A stretch of DNA of 8,509 nt from a virus (lineage: Duplodnaviria > Heunggongvirae > Uroviricota > Caudoviricetes): the IMG/VR virus record IMGVR_UViG_648276669_000009; one strand, 5' to 3'. The position numbers were made by a program, and so were the translations under genes. This document shows positions 1 to 8,509 of the stretch, piece by piece; position 1 is the first letter of the stretch, and each line of letters opens with the position of its first letter. Below the pieces are notes generated by a model that searched no databases, was not told the DNA's origin, and saw nothing but the letters and a program-made list of their open reading frames with translations.

Positions 1-1053
1 ATGACGTTACCACTAAGAGATTACTATCCTATTGAGCGCGCGGCAAAGTTATTAGACTGCGATATTGATGATCTTATTCATTGGGCTGTGACAGGCTGCA
101 TTCGTATTTGTATAAAAATTGAATCTGCATATGGAGTATTAAATATCCCAGATGAAAAAGATGTGGTTAATTTCGATTGTCTGCGTAAGTTTATGGATTC
201 AGAACCATGTAAATCACGGTTATCTGACCTTGATGCCATTTCAGAAAGGGCGGCAGAACACCATGGTTTTAATTATATAAAAACCAAGTCGAGAATTATA
301 TTTGATTCAATGTGCGAATCTCTAAGCCATTCATATGTAGCGCCCAAATTTGGTGACATAGCAATTGATACTGCATTTGCTTTGTTAAATTATTATAACA
401 GGGGGTTATATTATGGGGAAAATTATCACATATATAGTGTATATCGAATAGCAACGGATGAAAGAGCTGTGGCAGTTGTACCACCAGTATTTAAAGGTAT
501 TCAAGAAAAATACCATAAGTATTTCGTTGAAATAGGCGGTATTTTCGCTTTGGGGGGAAGTTTTTTTGCCAACTATGATTTTAATAAGAAGTTTAAAGCC
601 AACCGAATAATTAATAGCAATATTATAATTGCTTCTGACGTTGATATACATATAGGAGTAATTGTTACTGAGGATGTTTCTTTTGATATTGGTGATTTAT
701 ATATCTTAAAGAATGATTTTTTAAAAATACAAAATGCTACAAACTCCAATAGCGAGTTAAGAAAAGATTATGTTAGTCCATTGGCAGATACTTTATATTT
801 GTGTGCGGGTAACAATATATTAAGTTCTGAGGATGGAGAGAAAGATATATGCACCAATAAAAACAATATAGAACGATTATCTAAAACAATGAAGGATTTT
901 TTTCGTGCGATGCTTGTTATTCATTATAAAGAACTCGAAAACAATCCGGTAAAACTTGCTGATATATTGACCGCGGAAGCAAGAGAGGCAGGACTCAATA
1001 TGCGCTTTGATAAAAGTACTATATCAAGATGGATTAAGGCATCATCTCAGTAA
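1..1053 (+). CDS. Hypothetical protein, AT-rich, HTH-like motifs at both termini; possible regulator or accessory (cargo) protein
   Basis: Uninterrupted 350-codon ORF starting with ATG at position 1, so the upstream RBS cannot be seen and the ORF may extend upstream. GC is about 35 percent by eye, against about 50 percent for the neighbouring genes. N-terminal segment PIERAAKLLDCDIDDLIHWAVTG resembles excisionase/AlpA/MerR-type HTH; C-terminal LADILTAEAREAGLNMRFDKSTISRWIK resembles a classic HTH. No catalytic motif recognised. Confidence 0.55.
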   Translation: MTLPLRDYYPIERAAKLLDCDIDDLIHWAVTGCIRICIKIESAYGVLNIPDEKDVVNFDCLRKFMDSEPCKSRLSDLDAISERAAEHHGFNYIKTKSRIIFDSMCESLSHSYVAPKFGDIAIDTAFALLNYYNRGLYYGENYHIYSVYRIATDERAVAVVPPVFKGIQEKYHKYFVEIGGIFALGGSFFANYDFNKKFKANRIINSNIIIASDVDIHIGVIVTEDVSFDIGDLYILKNDFLKIQNATNSNSELRKDYVSPLADTLYLCAGNNILSSEDGEKDICTNKNNIERLSKTMKDFFRAMLVIHYKELENNPVKLADILTAEAREAGLNMRFDKSTISRWIKASSQ

Positions 1054-1148: not shown

Positions 1149-1469
1149 ATGACTCAATCCGCATTCATTCCACCAACTCCAGAACAGCGCCGCACCATAC
1201 TCGCCGAGTATGGTTTTGACTGCGAAGAACGCATCAGGGAAGAGAAGTGTAAAAAGATGACCACGCTTTCACGCTCCCGGCGCTGGGAACTGGAGAAGAT
1301 CGGTGCTTTTCCTCCCCGTCACTCTTTGGGGCGTTGCTCATGTACCTGGCTGTTAAGTGATGTTTTATGGTGGCTGCGTAATCCGCCAGTTATTGCCAAA
1401 GTGAATAACCCATACGAAAACGCCAAAAAGAAAAGGGAGAGGGAATCCGGTAGCGCCAGAGTTGAATAA
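1149..1469 (+). CDS. AlpA/Vis-family phage transcriptional regulator (excisionase-like winged HTH)
   Basis: 106-aa ORF with RBS GGGGGA about 7 nt upstream of the ATG. The segment TTLSRSRRWELEKIGAFPP...TWLLSDVLWWL matches the AlpA-type pattern of a helix followed by a conserved Trp-containing wing. Position upstream of an icd-like gene and primase is as in P4-like elements. An internal Met (MTTLS...) could be the true start. Confidence 0.65.
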   Translation: MTQSAFIPPTPEQRRTILAEYGFDCEERIREEKCKKMTTLSRSRRWELEKIGAFPPRHSLGRCSCTWLLSDVLWWLRNPPVIAKVNNPYENAKKKRERESGSARVE

Positions 1470-3147: not shown

Positions 3148-3172
3148 CCCCACTGCAAAAGGTGCAGTGGGG
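3148..3172 (+). terminator. Stem-loop (10-bp stem CCCCACTGCA / TGCAGTGGGG, 5-nt loop) with a short downstream T-tract; putative terminator or attenuator just upstream of the primase start
   Basis: Perfect inverted repeat read from the sequence. The 3-prime arm overlaps the primase SD region (GGTGGAG 3171-3177), which suggests control of primase expression. Confidence 0.4.
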
Positions 3173-3185
3173 TGGAGTTTTATAT

Positions 3186-5855
3186 ATGAAATCTGACATC
3201 AGAAAAGAGATTATTAACCGTCTTATCCGTGATTACAACTTCAAAGAAGAAAATAACTACCTCCGGTATGGTGTTTGTCCGCAATGTGGAAAGAAAGAGT
3301 TGTTTACCAGCCTTGAAAGGCCGTACATCGTACACTGCGGGCGTGAAAATAAATGCGGTGCAGACCTGCTGACCAAAGAACTTTACCCGGATGTGTTTTC
3401 ATCATGGTCAGATCGCTATATCAGCACGAAAGACGAGCCATATGCAGCGGCGGCAGCTTACCTTCAGGAGGCGCGCAATATTGCTGTGGAGCCGCTGAAG
3501 GGGGCATTTACTCAGGAGCGATACCAGGACAAGGAAAACGGCGAACAGGCCGCTACTGTGCGTTTTACGCTGGCTGACGGCGTGTGGTGGGAGCGCATCA
3601 TAGACCGACCGGAACGCTTCGCTCGCAAGGCGAATTTTTCCGGCAGCTACAAGGGGTTGTGGTGGGCTTATCCGGGAGCGGATTTAAGCAAGGCCAAAGA
3701 AATCTGGATTTGTGAGGGTATCTTTGATGCCATCAGCCTTAACCAGAATGGCATTGCGGCCGTTTCTGTCATGTCTGCCGTAAACTACCCGGATAAGGCG
3801 CTGGAAGAACTGGCGAAGCTGTGCGGTGATACCCCCCGTCCGGTTATCGTGTGGGCGCTGGATAACGGGCGTGCGGGTGAGCGTTACGCGAAAAAACATG
3901 CAGAACGCAGCGCCGAAGACGGCTGGAGAACGGCAGCGGCGTTACCGGGCGAAAACAACAATAAACGCGACTGGAATGATTTACACATCGCCGGAAAGCT
4001 GCGTGGCCATGATGTGAAAAGATACCGTTATTACGGTGATTTATTGTTGGCGAAATCTCCGAGAGATAAGGCACTAATAATGTTTTCCTTTCGTGAGCGA
4101 AAGGAATTTCATTTTCCCTTTGATAACCGTATTTTCTGGTTCAAGCTGGATATTGAGCGCCATATGAAGGCTGTTGAGCGTGTCATTAATGAGCGAAATG
4201 TTGACGAAGATGAAGCGCGCAAAATTGCACTCAAGGAATCCGGCGCTGTAAAAGAAATCGCAAACTGTAACCCAGTGCCGCTTTATTACATTCGAAACAA
4301 TGATACGGATGAAGCATGGTATTACTTCCGCATTACATTCCCGGATGGTGCTACGGTGAAAAACACCTTTACATCAGGGCAATTAACATCCGCATCTGAA
4401 TTTAAAAAACGTCTGTTGCACGTAGCAAAAGGCGGCATTTATACCGGAACGACTACGCAACTTGACGCATTAATAAAAAATGACCTTCCCGCAATAAAAG
4501 AGGTTATTGGTCAGGATTTTATCGGATACAACAAGGCCATTGGGGCATGGCTGTTTAATGATATTGCTGTTTACAAGGGTAAAACTTATGAAATCAATGA
4601 CGAAGATTATTTTGAAATTGATGGCATAAACGCAAAACCATTAAGCGAAAAACCCACATTACAGATTAACTACAAAAAACCGGATGAATTTACAACGTCA
4701 TGGGTGGAAGATCTCTGGCTGGCTTTTGGCGAAAAGGGAATTATTACCCTGGCTTTCTGGCTGGGTTCGCTGTTCAGTGAACAAATCCGGGATAAAGAAG
4801 AATCCTTCCCCTTCCTTGAAGTCACCGGGGAGCCCGGAACGGGTAAATCAACATTGATTGATTTTTGCTGGCGGCTGTGCGGTCGTGACAACTATGAAGG
4901 CGTAGATCCAACCAAAGGATCAGAGGCGGGCTGGAAGCGCACCTTTGGACAGGTCGCCGGATTACCTGTTGTTCTGATTGAAGCAGACCGGGGAGACAAT
5001 GCGCAAAAAAGAGGTGCGTTTGACTTCGATAACCTGAAAAGCCTCTATAACGGTGGCGGTATCGGTGTTCGTGGGGTTAAGGCCAACAATAACAACACCT
5101 ATGACCCGGATTTTAAGGGCGCTATCGTGATTGCGCAGAATGCGCGGGTAAATGCCTCGCCGGCAATTATTGAGCGCCTGATACGCATATACACCGATAA
5201 AAAACGCCATTCACCTGATACCCGACTGGCGGCGAGACGGCTGGAACTCTACCCCGTCGAGAAGGTATCGGGGTTTATTCACCGGGCGGTAAGTCAGGAA
5301 CGGGCGATTATGCAAACGTTCCTGGAAGTATCGCCCTCTGAAACGGAACGCCTTTGCGGATGCGAAAATATTCGCCATCCCCGTATTGCCAAAAATCACG
5401 CGCAACTTATCGCGCTGGTCAGGGCGCTGAAATGCGTTATCGATATCCCGGATGAATGGCTTGATGCCACATGTCTGGAACTGGAACAAATGGCAACGGC
5501 GCAGGTTAAAGCGGCGGCGGCTGACTTGCCAGAAGTGATGGAGTTCTGGGAGGCGTTCGACTTCCTGGACGGCATAACAAAATACGGTGTAAACCATTAC
5601 GGCAAGGGATGCCGCGAAGGGATTGCTATCAGTATTCCGCAACTGGCACAGGCTGCCGCCATTCACCGCGTGGAGATCCGAACCGATCGCGAAATGATTG
5701 AGTTGCTCGGAGCCGGACGTTCCCGACCTTTGACAGGCCGCAAAACCATTCGTAGTGAGGTGTCCAGACAGGCAAACGCCGGAAAAGGAGTAGCCGAAGC
5801 CAGAGAACCAGAAGTACTGAAATGCAGGATATTCAGTTACAAGGAGGGGGCTTAA
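3186..5855 (+). CDS. Replicative primase-helicase, P4 alpha-like (zinc ribbon + TOPRIM primase + D5/SF3-type P-loop NTPase)
   Basis: 889-aa ORF. N-terminal Cys4 zinc ribbon (CPQCGKK...HCGRENKCG), TOPRIM-like motifs (ICEGIFDAISL; LDNGRAGERY) and Walker A GEPGTGKST. ATG 3186 with SD GGTGGAG upstream is preferred over the GTG at 3162 used by the ORF track. The stop overlaps the integrase RBS. Confidence 0.85.
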   Translation: MKSDIRKEIINRLIRDYNFKEENNYLRYGVCPQCGKKELFTSLERPYIVHCGRENKCGADLLTKELYPDVFSSWSDRYISTKDEPYAAAAAYLQEARNIAVEPLKGAFTQERYQDKENGEQAATVRFTLADGVWWERIIDRPERFARKANFSGSYKGLWWAYPGADLSKAKEIWICEGIFDAISLNQNGIAAVSVMSAVNYPDKALEELAKLCGDTPRPVIVWALDNGRAGERYAKKHAERSAEDGWRTAAALPGENNNKRDWNDLHIAGKLRGHDVKRYRYYGDLLLAKSPRDKALIMFSFRERKEFHFPFDNRIFWFKLDIERHMKAVERVINERNVDEDEARKIALKESGAVKEIANCNPVPLYYIRNNDTDEAWYYFRITFPDGATVKNTFTSGQLTSASEFKKRLLHVAKGGIYTGTTTQLDALIKNDLPAIKEVIGQDFIGYNKAIGAWLFNDIAVYKGKTYEINDEDYFEIDGINAKPLSEKPTLQINYKKPDEFTTSWVEDLWLAFGEKGIITLAFWLGSLFSEQIRDKEESFPFLEVTGEPGTGKSTLIDFCWRLCGRDNYEGVDPTKGSEAGWKRTFGQVAGLPVVLIEADRGDNAQKRGAFDFDNLKSLYNGGGIGVRGVKANNNNTYDPDFKGAIVIAQNARVNASPAIIERLIRIYTDKKRHSPDTRLAARRLELYPVEKVSGFIHRAVSQERAIMQTFLEVSPSETERLCGCENIRHPRIAKNHAQLIALVRALKCVIDIPDEWLDATCLELEQMATAQVKAAAADLPEVMEFWEAFDFLDGITKYGVNHYGKGCREGIAISIPQLAQAAAIHRVEIRTDREMIELLGAGRSRPLTGRKTIRSEVSRQANAGKGVAEAREPEVLKCRIFSYKEGA

Positions 5856-5857
5856 AC

Positions 5858-6861
5858 ATGTCGATCAGAAAACTGGATGATGGGCGATGGTTGCTCGATA
5901 TCAGGCCATGCGGACGTAAAGGAAAGCGCGTCAGAAGAATATTTGACAGAAAATCGATAGCTGTAGCAACTGAACGGTACATCATAGCGAACGCCGAAAA
6001 ACGCGAGTTTATACAGGGCTACCGCGACCGGAGAACCCTCAGCGATTTACTGGAGTTGTGGTGGGTTTATCACGGTCAGCACAGGCGAAAGGCAGGCACA
6101 GATAAACAGCAGCTTGGCAAAATCATTAATGAGCTTGGAGCTGACATGTTTGCGGTAGAGCTCGACAAATTAAAAATCATTGCATGGCGATCGCAGAAAA
6201 TTGCGGAAGGGCTAAAGCCGTCCTCAGCAAACAGATATATGAACAGATTATCTGGGATGTTTACAGCCCTGAAAAAGATCGGTTTGTGGGATGCAGAACA
6301 TCCTGTTCACGGTATTCCTGTTCTTTACGTAAGGCAGCGGGAGATGGCCTTTTTATCAAAAAACGAGGTCACATTGTTGCTTGACAGACTGAATGGAGAT
6401 CAACGAAGGGTTGCGCTCTTATGTCTTTGCACCGGAGCTCGCTGGAGTGAAGCCAGCAGATTACACGGAGAGCAAATAGTTCATAACAGAATCACGTTTC
6501 TGGAAACCAAAAACGGTAGAAAAAGAACGGTGCCTGTGTCGCAGGAAATATGTGCTGCCGTAAAAACAAAAGAAACCGGGCGACTGTTTGATGTGAAGTA
6601 CAGAGAGTTTTGCCGGGCATTAAAAAAATAAAACCCGATTTACCGAGGGGGCAGGCTGCGCATGTATTGCGGCATACATTCGCCAGTCACTTTGTGATGA
6701 ACGGTGGCAACATTCTTGCGCTACAAAAAATCCTTGGGCATGCGACAATTCAGCAGACTATGGCATACGCACATTTTGCACCGGATTATCTGGCAGATGC
6801 CATGAGATTTAACCCGGTAGCCAACATAGTGATCACCGAAGAAAAAGAGCCAGCAGAGTAA
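5858..6861 (+). pseudogene. int: Tyrosine recombinase / integrase, phage P2 Int-like, interrupted by a -1 frameshift in an A7 run (reading frame switches at about 6622-6631)
   Basis: ATG 5858 with SD AAGGAGGGGG upstream. N-terminus MSIRKLDDGRWLLDIRPCGRKGKRVRRIF is colinear with P2 Int as I recall it. Box I TGARWSEASRL lies in the first frame; the HxxR motif (HVLRHTFASHF) and catalytic Tyr region (TMAYAHFAPDYL) lie in the -1 frame (6610..6861). The first frame ends at TAA 6629-6631. Joining the frames at the A-run gives ...RALKKIKPDLP..., with the same spacing as the P2 Int junction. Confidence 0.8.
6622..6631 (+). other. A_AAA_AAA slippery heptamer immediately followed by an in-frame TAA; site of the integrase frame change
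   Basis: Codons TTA AAA AAA TAA in the zero frame. A -1 shift reads ATA AAA CCC (I K P) and continues into the catalytic domain. Could be a 1-nt deletion from an ancestral A8, a homopolymer sequencing error, or programmed slippage. Confidence 0.6.
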
Positions 6862-6890
6862 CCCGCAGAACGCTACATTCACAGCAAAAG

Positions 6891-6918
6891 AGGTCAGTTT
6901 CCCGCTGACCTTTTTTGT
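6891..6918 (+). terminator. Rho-independent terminator downstream of the integrase
   Basis: Stem AGGTCAG (6891-6897) / CTGACCT (6905-6911) with a 7-nt loop, followed by TTTTTTGTT. Lies 30 nt after the integrase stop. Confidence 0.6.
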
Positions 6919-7108
6919 TGGCCAGAACCAACGGTAACAGCAATGCAATGGTGGCCATATTGCAGTGGTGCCGCCATCAATTTTTTGCTCCCCTGATTAT
7001 CAGAAAGAGTCAAATAGTGGTGAGATACATTTTAATTACAGAGAGTTAATGAAAGTGAGATAGAGTGAGTGAGTTTAATTAACATTTTAAAGGGTCGCGC
7101 TAAAGTTT

Positions 7109-7426
7109 GGGGGGGGATGCGCAAAGCGGTTACAACGGTTACAAATTTAAAATCACTTATTTTTGTATTATGTATCAATATATTATAACTGGTCTGATGA
7201 GTTACAAAAGCGGTTACAACGCGGTTACATGTAACCGTTTTGTTAGGTTACAGGCGGTTACAGGTTAAGTTTTTAATTGATTGATAATAAAGTGCTTTTT
7301 GAAACCTGTAACCGTTGTAACCGCAGTGTAACCGCAAAGCGGTTACAAACAATATCCATTAAAATCATGTTGTTAAGTGGTGTTTTTGACTGTTGTAACC
7401 GTTGTAACCGCTTTGCGCACCCCCCA
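7109..7426. repeat. Iteron cluster: at least 13 copies of GGTTACA / TGTAACC in dyad-symmetric arrangement, bounded by a 34-bp inverted repeat and containing AT-rich spacers; putative replication origin and/or recombination arm-site region
   Basis: Perfect heptamers at 7128, 7137, 7212, 7223, 7246, 7256, 7341 (top strand) and 7230, 7307, 7316, 7327, 7394, 7403 (complement), plus degenerate copies. Left arm 7111-7144 and right arm 7393-7425 are reverse complements apart from one extra A at 7117. There is a 16-bp perfect palindrome CGGTTACATGTAACCG at 7222-7237. AT-rich tracts lie at 7145-7200 and 7263-7300. Confidence 0.7.
7173..7185 (+). promoter_or_regulatory. IHF-like site (TATCAATATATTA fits WATCAANNNNTTR) inside the AT-rich spacer of the iteron region
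   Basis: Consensus match read from the sequence. AT-rich DNA produces such matches easily, so this is weak on its own. Confidence 0.3.
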
Positions 7427-7653
7427 CCGGATTATGAGGCAGAGTCCCAAAACAACTGGCCTGACCTCTAACAAAAATGCAACATCAATCATTGATTTTT
7501 TTTGGGGCTGTCAGTCACGGGGAGTTGCCCTGTTGTTTGGCAGAAAAATGAAGTATGTACATGCGCGGCGGGGATGGTAAAAAACGTAATACACGCGGCG
7601 CAGTTGCCATAAAAAATCTCTCAAAAGCACTCTTTTTGACGCTATTGTTCATC

Positions 7654-7680
7654 TGCACAAAAGTGCACAAATTTGCACAA
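7654..7680 (+). promoter_or_regulatory. Three tandem TGCACAA repeats with exact 10-bp phasing (plus a fourth copy at 7746-7752); candidate operator / regulator-binding array
   Basis: TGCACAA at 7654, 7664 and 7674 places the copies on one helical face. They sit inside a 540-bp apparently non-coding region upstream of the ogr-like gene. Confidence 0.35.
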
Positions 7681-8042
7681 TTTTTTAGAGTAACTTTTTG
7701 CCCATCCGGCCCAGTACTGGCGCGCCCGGAGGGCGATTTCGTGCGTGCACAAAAAACGGTGAGTTTTTCGCGCGCAGGTGACGGGGGAACAGCCCGCGTT
7801 TCAGGGGGTAAATTACATCTTTCGCTAAAGACTGTGGGAATGTCCGACCGGGTTAGTTTTATCGCCAGCCAGAGCCGTTCTTACTGCAAGAGAGAACTGA
7901 TACGGGGAATGTGAGGAGTGAGTATGGGAACGGTGTGCCTGCGCGTAATACGCAGCGACCGTTGCGGATTTATTTGATACAGCCAGAGGAGGCGGCGGAA
8001 GATATAATAGGTTAAATTTCACACCAGTAAGAGGAGCGTGAT

Positions 8043-8225
8043 ATGTCTTTCCCTTGCCCGGCCTGTGGCGCTTCAGCCCGCACCCGTGGTCGTTCGTTGG
8101 AAGAACACGAACAAAACATCTACAAAACGTATTACCAGTGCAATAATATTGAGTGCGGGGCCTGTTTTTGTACGCTTGAGTCGTTTGTACGCATCACTAA
8201 GCGCAGGAAGTCGAAAACTTCATAG
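8043..8225 (+). CDS. ogr: Ogr/Delta-family zinc-finger late-gene transcriptional activator
   Basis: 60-aa ORF with SD AGGAG 7 nt upstream of the ATG. Cys spacing C-X2-C-X24-C-X4-C (CPAC...QCNNIEC), and the local sequence CPACGASARTRGR...YYQCNNIECGACF parallels P2 Ogr (CPLCQHAAHARTSRY...YHQCQNVNCSATF, from memory). Confidence 0.85.
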   Translation: MSFPCPACGASARTRGRSLEEHEQNIYKTYYQCNNIECGACFCTLESFVRITKRRKSKTS

Positions 8226-8275
8226 TGATTTGTATAACACAGCCAGCGAGTGTGACCGGCTGCGTTATTTCTGTA

Positions 8276-8509
8276 TTATGTCGTGTGGTTCTGGTCATTT
8301 GCCCAGGCCCACACATCCCCCGCGACATTGCGCCCGTTGCGGTCTTCTTCATGCTTTTCCCCGGCCTTAATTCCCTGACTGATAAACATCCTGACGCACT
8401 GGGAGTAGTTCATCTCTCTGTCCTTACATATCTGATTTATTTTATGGTCGATTTCGAGCGGAATACGAATACAGCGTAATACGCATCGCATTTTCTTTTG
8501 TTTTTTCAT
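8276..8509 (-). CDS. Ribbon-helix-helix (Arc/Mnt-like) DNA-binding protein, putative repressor
   Basis: 77-aa ORF convergent with ogr, 50 bp between the two stops. LRCIRIPLEIDHKINQICKDREMNYSQCVRMFISQG fits the RHH pattern (beta strand, helix A, N-x-S/N-capped helix B) of Arc. The start codon is at the window edge, so the RBS and promoter are not visible; the internal Met at 8491 is an alternative start. Confidence 0.55.
   Translation of the reverse strand: MKKQKKMRCVLRCIRIPLEIDHKINQICKDREMNYSQCVRMFISQGIKAGEKHEEDRNGRNVAGDVWAWANDQNHTT

Follow-up and report, generated by a model that had tools for sequence, protein, structure and literature searches.

An Ogr/Delta-like activator gene in the putative helper-interface region of a P4-like satellite island of Escherichia coli

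The stretch of DNA considered here, hereafter the window, is the 8,509-nucleotide record IMGVR_UViG_648276669_000009 of IMG/VR, which is assigned to a virus of the Caudoviricetes. Its right end (positions 7427-8509) carries a short gene of the Ogr/Delta family, and this end is likely to be the helper-interface control region of one P4-like satellite, combining a copy of a probable helper packaging (cos) site, an Ogr-type activator gene and a convergent gene for a protein resembling ribbon-helix-helix (RHH) regulators. We read it as a delta-like transactivator placed under a repressor switch in an apparently undescribed variant of the P4-like satellites, the regulation being deduced from sequence. 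The first-pass annotation of the window had reported an Ogr/Delta-like gene codirectional with an integrase gene and convergent with an Arc-like RHH gene. It had proposed that the DNA is either a mosaic element or two juxtaposed elements.

The ogr/delta-like gene (8043-8225, plus strand) encodes a single zinc-finger protein of 60 residues that was recognized as a homologue of phage late-gene activators by Pfam, by alignment and by PGAP. The protein matches the Pfam family PF04606 Ogr_Delta with an E-value of 2.4e-11 and 43.8 bits, for a curated cut-off of 26.3, and it also matches phrog_603 'transcriptional regulator'. In an alignment that also comprised P2 Ogr, two Ogr proteins of Xuanwuvirus and P4 Delta (N-terminal half), the zinc-ligand cysteines C5, C8, C33 and C38 (CxxC ... 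CxxxxC) are invariant. Its identity amounts to 47-54% with the Xuanwuvirus Ogr proteins (51-54% by tblastn), 33% with P2 Ogr and 35% with the N-terminal half of P4 Delta. The same protein is named 'ogr/Delta-like zinc finger family protein' by PGAP in all of the 52 full-length E. coli matches. The assignment made by the first-pass annotation, a single-domain Ogr/Delta homologue of 60 residues, is therefore upheld by the Pfam score and the four conserved cysteines. Its statement that P4 Delta is a longer, duplicated form is also correct, as the alignment shows 166 residues and two finger domains.

A good ribosome-binding site, AAGAGGAG, lies ahead of the open reading frame (ORF) at 8030-8037. 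Further upstream, a TATAAT hexamer (8004-8009, plus strand), located 34 nt 5' of the ATG, was read directly from the sequence as the putative -10 element of an ogr promoter. It has no convincing -35 counterpart and was missed by a consensus promoter scan. The gene starts 1182 bp 3' of the end of int2 (6861), the P2-type integrase gene of the window, on the same strand, in agreement with the codirectional arrangement and the spacing of about 1.2 kb initially noticed. Taken alone, this ogr gene is ordinary and already annotated as such, and its interest lies in its setting.

The setting is a single island. Over its 3' third, the window shares 98.8% identity with the chromosome of E. coli MIN10, and a near full-length copy is found in 55 of 5426 complete E. 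coli genomes. In MIN10 the element forms a 12.95-kb island at the 5' end of hpt, between gcd and hpt. The gene order, starting from gcd, is a P4-type integrase, an ORF of 350 codons, AlpA, an ORF annotated 'Icd-like', small ORFs, the primase and int2, followed by ogr, the RHH-like gene on the minus strand, an ORF of 236 codons, a 423-codon ORF annotated 'P2 family major capsid protein', mazEF and hpt. A 32-nt direct repeat, which duplicates the 5' end of hpt, brackets the interval from the left-end integrase to mazEF with a spacing of 12,951 bp, and arm-type repeats GTGTATCAAT are present at both island ends. No tail, portal or terminase gene was found nearby in MIN10, where the flanks are gcd and hpt and not phage genes. 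The 20 full-length genome matches listed are all colinear and in one piece. With a longer query, 20 full-length E. coli copies were listed; every one of them, like the inspected loci, has annotated ogr, RHH-like, Sid-like and gpN-like ORFs. The order primase, int2, small gene, Sid-like gene and gpN-like gene recurs at two other E. coli sites, tRNA-Arg and the vicinity of dapE, and in Salmonella close to rpoD. Since this combination recurs at several chromosomal sites, it represents a conserved design.

The late genes of the island lie just beyond the window. A gene encoding a protein of 236 residues starts 165 bp past the window end. No Pfam, PHROG or PDB sequence match was found for this protein, which belongs in sequence searches to a small family of 236-253 residues without a name, and by BLASTP it reaches P4 Sid at an E-value of 0.22 only and Psu not at all. 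The profile of its family aligns with P4 Sid in hhalign with a probability of 70% and an E-value of 4e-5, and the aligned region includes a W-x8-GV motif. Its AlphaFold2 model (predicted local distance difference test, pLDDT, 90.3) ranks P4 Sid first (7jw1_E, probability 0.98) and P4 Psu second (3rx6) among 350,542 PDB chains in Foldseek, at modest E-values of 0.05 and 0.12, respectively. From the profile and the predicted fold, we take it to be a Sid/Psu-family gene. It is the only Sid/Psu-like gene of the island, the next slot being occupied by a gpN-like gene in place of psu. The first-pass annotation had seen neither sid nor psu. This is true inside the window and is an artefact of where the window ends.

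The gpN-type major capsid gene (positions 22584-23855 of locus L001) is found about 875 bp beyond the window end and encodes 423 residues. The match is strong both in Pfam (E 3e-73) and with the gpN of PDB entry 7jw1 (E 1e-56). The protein has a unique N-terminal region of about 110 residues, while N-terminal extensions of 0-130 residues are found in its relatives. With phage capsid gene products it shares no more than 33-39% identity. The gpN-like proteins of satellites form their own clade, with 40-48% mutual identity across genera and conservation over the full length, which implies long purifying selection within satellites. A single close relative was found in a scan of species-representative genomes for the gpN-like protein. 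An inspection of the flanks for sid, psu, capsid and terminase genes, a cos site and att sequences, as had been recommended at first pass, has thus located a Sid-like gene, a gpN-type capsid gene, an att repeat and a probable cos site, and neither psu nor terminase.

The promoter region of the Sid-like gene contains the candidate target of the activator. Exact TGT-N12-ACA boxes are located 5' of this gene in the Salmonella relative and in a further relative (locus L018), and the present element has an Ogr box with one mismatch, TGTGAGCGTATTACGAGA, at L001 21781-21798. The centre of the box is situated 82-88 bp upstream of the ATG in all three satellites and at P4 Psid. An AAAAAT sequence at L001 21833-21838 resembles the GAAAAT -10 of P2 PF and, taken as the -10, puts the box centre near -55, with transcription predicted to begin around L001 21845. 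Four copies of a palindrome lie in or around this box: the first just upstream of it, the second inside its spacer, the third in the -35 region and the last in the leader. Such an arrangement, as read from the sequence, is consistent with competition between a repressor and an Ogr-type activator.

The candidate repressor is encoded by the gene convergent with ogr (8276-8509, minus strand), which is divergent from the Sid-like/gpN-like operon. The ORF encodes 77 residues, its ATG coincides with the right end of the window, and PGAP calls it identically in MIN10. AlphaFold2 predicts a strand-helix-helix (E14-17, H18-30, H35-45), with a pLDDT of 74-81 in this part and 68 overall, and an additional C-terminal helix at residues 62-76. 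Sequence searches returned only a narrow family without a name, and a comparison with the Arc-like repressor of the helper was not significant. Homologues of the small gene occupy the equivalent position in the Salmonella satellite and in other E. coli satellites and share the motif LR..R.P..D..I...C......YS. On the basis of the model, an RHH identity is plausible.

The palindrome, GCGTA(A/T)TACGC in full, is 11 bp long. A degenerate copy, ACGTAATACAC, is found left of the cos block (7584-7594) and is retained in the related loci L008 and L020. Two perfect copies of GCGTAATACGC are located at 7943-7953, centred 95 bp upstream of the ogr ATG, and at 8474-8484, within the 5' end of the RHH-like ORF. 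Four further palindromes occur just past the window (L001 21764-21864), in the 164-bp intergenic region between the RHH-like and Sid-like genes. By our own estimate, about 0.004 perfect 11-mers are expected in the window, where two are present. The sequence CGTAATAC occurs seven times in the 41.7-kb locus, for 1.08 copies expected over the whole of it, and six of the seven lie inside 1.04 kb around ogr and the RHH-like gene. In the Salmonella relative a variant, TGTAATACA, is present seven times, at the flanks of the cos block, at the ogr remnant, at the 5' end of the RHH-like gene and in the intergenic region. No palindrome was found in the L018 relative, whose small protein has a different N-terminal strand. 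The sequence of the palindrome thus varies together with the β-strand of the RHH-like protein while the Ogr box is constant. Sites ahead of a gene and in its own 5' end are the usual layout of autoregulated RHH repressors. The palindromes are accordingly proposed as candidate operators of the RHH-like protein. They were also considered as a motif of helper late promoters, which was ruled out by the lack of enrichment in the genome of Xuanwuvirus phage 520873. The late intergenic regions of Xuanwuvirus do contain GCGCGTAAT-like strings.

A probable helper packaging site (7652-7820) lies upstream of ogr. It is a block of about 160 bp that the island has in common with P88-like (Xuanwuvirus) phages of the P2 family only. 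It contains TGCACAA repeats at 7654, 7664 and 7674 and a fourth copy at 7746. A core of 43 nt (7771-7813) is identical in the three P88-like phage or prophage sequences aligned, and the flanks are unrelated. An unannotated segment with 80-84% identity over about 160 bp is present in 1123 of the 5426 complete E. coli genomes. Two of these were inspected, and in both it belongs to ParM-carrying P2-like prophages and is located between accessory genes and the portal gene, which is the position of cos in P2. More generally, in P88-like phages and prophages the block occupies the interval just upstream of the 3' end of the portal gene. It was found in the Xuanwuvirus phages P88, 520873, 500465-2 and P88_4B11, and the record of the latter, which has a virion-style layout, is linearised inside the block. 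PGAP annotates a 'hypothetical protein' across the block (7555-7914, plus strand). This ORF has no Pfam or PHROG match, its conservation in phages is limited to the central 160 bp and the indels are not multiples of three. It is probably spurious and was judged not to be a gene. A resemblance to the 19-nt cos end of P2 (13 of 19 positions by eye) was set aside, since Smith-Waterman scans across the entire P2 and P4 genomes gave better chance matches at other places.

Left of the block, the non-coding interval 7427-7650 is nearly invariant among the window, MIN10 and L008, the latter being about 82% identical otherwise. No RNA family, ORF or promoter was found in this interval that accounts for its conservation, and it may be part of an extended packaging site.

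These data point to the identity of the helper. The satellite shares DNA with Xuanwuvirus phages in int2 and the cos block only, and the closest phage Ogr (47-54% identity) and the closest phage integrase (81%) both come from Xuanwuvirus phages that carry the block. P88-like (Xuanwuvirus) phages of the P2 family are thus the probable helpers. At least one further match to the cos-block query was found in 36 of the 52 satellite-bearing genomes, compared with about 20% of the remaining genomes having any match, a comparison uncorrected for relatedness. The further matches are presumably second copies of the block, which suggests that satellite and helper frequently reside together.

The second integrase gene, int2 (5858-6861, plus strand), encodes a P2-type tyrosine integrase with Int_N and Phage_integrase domains in Pfam. 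Its product is 48% identical to P2 Int over 324 residues and 81% identical to the integrase of Xuanwuvirus P88_4B11 (L006 27072-28076), the closest phage integrase. The gene is intact in MIN10, where it encodes 334 residues. The other integrase of the island, of P4 type with an Arm-DNA-bind_3 domain in Pfam, is seen in MIN10, where its gene lies immediately left of the part corresponding to the window. As the copy of the backbone at tRNA-Arg has a different left-end integrase, int2 does not set the chromosomal site. In a sister island also inserted at hpt (locus L020, 9258-10259), the int2 allele is 51% identical. The possibility that this allele is the integrase of another helper was considered and dropped, its best phage match being 57% only. 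The similarity to phage DNA ends at about position 6800. No attP-like helper DNA was found downstream of int2, and a helper attP 3' of the gene is ruled out, nothing being shared with the phage there. From these comparisons, int2 looks like a swappable cassette encoding a helper-type integrase, which may act on helper att sites, in multimer resolution or in another role.

The remainder of the window has a P4-like organization, in line with the P4-like backbone carrying a P2-type integrase that had been described at first pass. It opens with an ORF of 350 codons without family matches (1-1053, plus strand), followed by a gene for an AlpA/Vis-type excisionase-regulator (1149-1469, plus strand; Pfam Phage_AlpA, E 3.3e-07; phrog_2790 'excisionase and transcriptional regulator', E 4.6e-30). 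An isrK RNA (1770-1851; RF01394, 52.1 bits) and a C4/CI-type antisense RNA (1877-1964; RF01695, 74.7 bits) come next on the same strand, with Rfam scores that both exceed the gathering thresholds. The segment 1770-1964 corresponds to a P4/P1-type RNA immunity region by these matches. The two RNAs overlap the 5' part of the 'Icd-like' ORF. The gene for a P4 α-type primase (3186-5855, plus strand) matches phrog_1139 DNA primase (E 5e-297) and Pfam Toprim_2. Its start at 3186 is taken from the PGAP call in MIN10, the mechanical ORF start being at 3162. The small ORFs that separate alpA from the primase gene gave no Phage_ASH or related match that would indicate epsilon (Ash); a Phage_ASH-type match is present in the L018 relative.

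An intrinsic-terminator-like hairpin, GGTCAG...CTGACC followed by T6, was read from the sequence at 6891-6917 on the plus strand, in agreement with a scan that flagged it too (L001 20092-20112), and would end the primase-int2 operon. It is followed by a field of GGTTACA iterons (7108-7428), with 13 copies in both orientations, an AT-rich centre (7145-7200) and inverted outer arms of about 35 bp flanked by G8 and C6 runs. This is the only such cluster of the island: the field holds 13 of the 17 copies in the 41.7-kb locus, for 4.0 expected over the whole of it. Its position after the primase gene corresponds to that of P4 crr, just after alpha. In L020, the iterons are the same and the primase is 90% identical, as opposed to 51% for int2. 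The iterons thus stay with the primase when int2 is swapped, and they belong to replication and not to int2. By analogy with P4, the field is a probable replication origin or crr-like site bound by the primase. Two other roles were ruled out: integrase arm sites, the iterons being unchanged in L020 despite the 51%-identical int2, and an invertible switch between the 35-bp arms, the 20 full-length matches listed being colinear. A 19-nt imperfect direct repeat (D5; 17 of 19 positions identical) is found at 6779-6797, where DNA homology to the phage integrase gene stops, and at 7425-7443, directly after the iteron field. It brackets 6798-7424 and is at about chance level, with 0.5 expected by our own estimate.

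Among the relatives, a copy of the satellite is located at tRNA-Arg in E. coli K_EC180 (locus L021) and has a different P4-type integrase.

Taken together, these features suggest the following functioning of the element. In the integrated state, the RNA immunity region would silence the early operon as in P4, to judge from the Rfam matches and from what is known of P4. The RHH-like protein, bound to the GCGTAWTACGC palindromes (seven in 1.3 kb), would silence the late operon and probably ogr. Upon late development of a P88-like helper, or upon derepression of the satellite, Ogr-type activators would switch on the late operons. The Ogr-like protein would be the counterpart of P4 Delta. Together with the helper's own Ogr, it would bind TGT-N12-ACA-type boxes near -55 and recruit RNA polymerase, both at helper late promoters and at the satellite late promoter driving the Sid/Psu-family and gpN-like operon. 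The primase would replicate the island from the iterons, and the cos copy at 7652-7820 would allow packaging of the satellite by the helper terminase.

Several points weigh against this reading. The work is computational: homologies, gene order, the single att-bounded island, motif clustering and conservation across relatives are observations, and what binds the palindromes, where transcription starts, whether Ogr activates, whether cos is cleaved and which phage is the helper are deduced from them. Concerning the activator, the Ogr-like protein does not have the 12-26 or so C-terminal residues present in phage Ogr proteins. In the Salmonella relative (L016 9290-9582), ogr is split over two frames, with the C-terminal 51 codons alone in one ORF; this satellite keeps a perfect Ogr box at its Sid-like promoter and may rely on the Ogr of its helper. 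The first-pass annotation had suggested searching 7500-8040 and the helper genome for Ogr boxes. An exact search found no TGT-N12-ACA box in 7500-8040 or near ogr, and the exact pattern is not enriched in the Xuanwuvirus genome. The exact pattern is too strict, since the P2 PO and PF boxes end in CCA. Cross-activation of the helper late promoters is assumed from P2 and P4.

The other points concern the repressor, the packaging site and the integrity of the element. The 77-residue protein matches Pfam CopG_antitoxin below cut-off (E 0.093), its model gives no significant Foldseek match (best E 1.0, with Arc, NikA and VapB among weak matches only) and a PDB profile search returned no RHH protein. 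Of the convergent Arc-like RHH gene originally announced, the convergent ORF of 77 codons stands and the Arc-like label is weakly supported. The accompanying suggestion that it may regulate ogr receives circumstantial support from the palindromes near ogr and near the RHH-like gene promoter, with the reservation that the copy upstream of ogr lies at about -68, beyond the core promoter. The cos block resembles P2 or P4 cos no better than expected by chance, no mapped virion ends were found for Xuanwuvirus, and the further matches counted in satellite-bearing genomes are presumed second copies. In the window, int2 is frameshifted by a 1-nt deletion in the A-run at 6622-6628 (A7, A8 in MIN10) and is split into two ORFs, a change that may stem from an error in sequencing or from recent inactivation. 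In K_EC180, a deletion (L021 8472-9171) joins a truncated int2 to a truncated ogr with loss of the iterons and of cos, giving a decayed derivative.

Four other explanations were weighed. The juxtaposition of two elements, a P4-like island ending within 6900-7500 and an ogr gene left by a neighbouring P2-like prophage or its remnant, would account for the P2-family relatives of int2, ogr, cos and the gpN-like gene and for the D5 repeat around 6798-7424. This is very improbable. A single att pair between gcd and hpt surrounds the whole stretch that runs from the left-end integrase through mazEF, and the interval 6900-7430, where the boundary had been placed at first pass, is filled by the terminator and the iterons. 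The gene order is found again at the tRNA-Arg and dapE sites of E. coli and the rpoD site of Salmonella, phage tail, portal and terminase genes are missing, the gpN-like gene is only 33-39% identical to its phage counterparts, and the D5 repeat is at chance level. A P2-like prophage abutting the element, which would have assigned ogr to a neighbour, was not seen in MIN10, where the flanks are gcd and hpt. What remains of the original proposal is a mosaic in the evolutionary sense, in which a P4-like replication and immunity core is combined with int2, cos, ogr and a gpN-like gene related to the P2 family. It is also improbable, although less so, that the element is a decayed relic with an inactive Ogr-like protein, in which int2, ogr, cos and the gpN-like gene are the debris of old recombination with a helper. 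The int2 frameshift, the split ogr of Salmonella, the K_EC180 fusion of int2 to ogr and the short Ogr C-terminus all agree with decay. On the other hand, the ogr, RHH-like, Sid-like and gpN-like ORFs are annotated in all 20 full-length copies listed, the gpN-like clade implies long purifying selection, the 43-nt cos core has remained identical to that of phages amid unrelated flanks, and the position of the Ogr box is kept in three diverged relatives. Besides, P2 Ogr reportedly tolerates C-terminal truncation.

The two remaining explanations accept a single element. In one, the wiring differs: the palindromes would be bound by the Ogr-like protein, AlpA or a packaging factor, and the 77-residue protein would be antitoxin-like or have another role. 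The non-significant RHH assignment leaves room for this, as do the palindromes flanking the cos block in the E. coli and Salmonella satellites and the GCGCGTAAT-like strings of Xuanwuvirus. Yet the phage genome shows no enrichment of the palindrome, four copies directly precede the 77-residue gene and one lies in its 5' end, as is usual for RHH autoregulation, and the motif changes or vanishes in step with the N-terminal strand of the small protein while the Ogr box stays constant. We regard such alternative wiring as a minor but real possibility. In the other, which is unlikely, the right-hand module serves mainly against phages: the helper Ogr would induce the Sid-like protein together with a decoy capsid protein, both poisoning head assembly of the helper, and the Ogr-like gene would have no role beyond boosting this response, with no productive transfer of the island. 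The Ogr-box promoter in front of the Sid-like and gpN-like genes and the adjoining mazEF are compatible with such a function, and P4 Sid itself interferes with P2 (PMC8628076; PMC7552001). The conserved cos copy, integrase, primase and iterons point instead to a mobilisable replicon, and known satellites can combine interference and transfer. The control region of one P4-like satellite therefore remains the preferred reading of 7427-8509.

The core set of P4-like satellites comprises int, psu, delta, sid, alpA and epsilon as well as alpha (PMC8628076). In the present island, the integrase (in the MIN10 copy), alpA, alpha and delta in a single-domain form were found; sid is represented by a remote match, and psu and epsilon were not found. 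The element resembles P4 by its P4-type left-end integrase (in MIN10), its AlpA/Vis regulator, its CI/C4-type immunity RNA and its α primase followed by crr-like iterons. It also resembles P4 by its Ogr-family transactivator, by a Sid/Psu-family gene behind a TGT-N12-ACA-type box centred, as at Psid, 82-88 bp upstream of the ATG, and by a short block of helper sequence, which in P4 is cos. It differs from P4 in several respects. P4 Delta has 166 residues and two fingers and is encoded inside the sid-delta-psu operon, whereas the protein described here has 60 residues and one domain and is encoded alone, convergently with an RHH-like gene. Neither psu nor epsilon was detected, a gpN-like capsid protein is encoded in the late operon, the primase is followed by a second integrase of P2 type, and the gene order is another one, with late genes downstream of alpha and in the same orientation. 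In addition, the cos block has its match in P88-like phages and not in P2, and an RHH-like gene and palindromes are present. Compared with the Ogr proteins of P2 and Xuanwuvirus (Peduoviridae), the single CxxC...CxxxxC zinc finger is the same. The phage proteins are longer (72-86 residues), a basic tail KRRKSKTS replaces their C-terminus here, and their gene is located at the D-ogr end of the phage genome whereas this one is satellite-encoded. The RHH-like protein resembles the Arc/CopG/MetJ repressors in size, in its predicted strand-helix-helix and in the clustered palindromes before and inside the 5' end of its gene. It differs from them by the absence of a significant sequence or fold match and by the extra C-terminal helix (62-76), and its binding to the palindromes is predicted.

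Capsid-forming phage-inducible chromosomal islands (cf-PICIs) encode a full head and packaging set, consisting of an HK97-type capsid protein, portal, protease, adaptors and terminase. Like them, the present satellite has its own major capsid protein gene; in contrast to them, it encodes a gpN-type capsid protein and a Sid-like protein only, on a P4-like backbone. Because the island has no portal, protease, head-tail adaptor or terminase gene, it is not a cf-PICI. With only capsid and Sid-like genes of its own, it must obtain portal, terminase and tails from the helper. In full-text literature searches and in the main surveys of P4-like satellites, no P4-like element with a gpN homologue or with a second P2-type integrase was found, which is not proof that none has been described.

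The fuller proposal, put forward tentatively, is that the element represents an undescribed P4-like lineage of E. coli and Salmonella exploiting P88-like Peduoviridae. Such a lineage would have its own gpN-type capsid protein and a Sid-like scaffold, a swappable P2-family integrase possibly directed at helper att sites, and a short activator of Ogr type, counteracted by an RHH repressor with operators lying over the Ogr box. If true, it would stand between capsid-remodelling satellites such as P4 and capsid-forming satellites such as the cf-PICIs. P4 is the textbook satellite that takes the capsid protein of its helper and reshapes it by means of Sid. Unlike P4, this element pairs a Sid-like gene with a capsid gene of its own and has the probable cos of another phage genus, a helper-like integrase (81% identity) and candidate repressor sites on top of the activator box. 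For genome annotation, such islands escape the psu and epsilon markers used for P4-like elements, and a hypothetical protein is annotated across their cos block. If functional, the element would make it possible to test whether a satellite capsid protein co-assembles with the portal and tails of a helper, whether helper specificity is set by cos, by the Ogr box or by both, and of what use a second, helper-like integrase is to a satellite.

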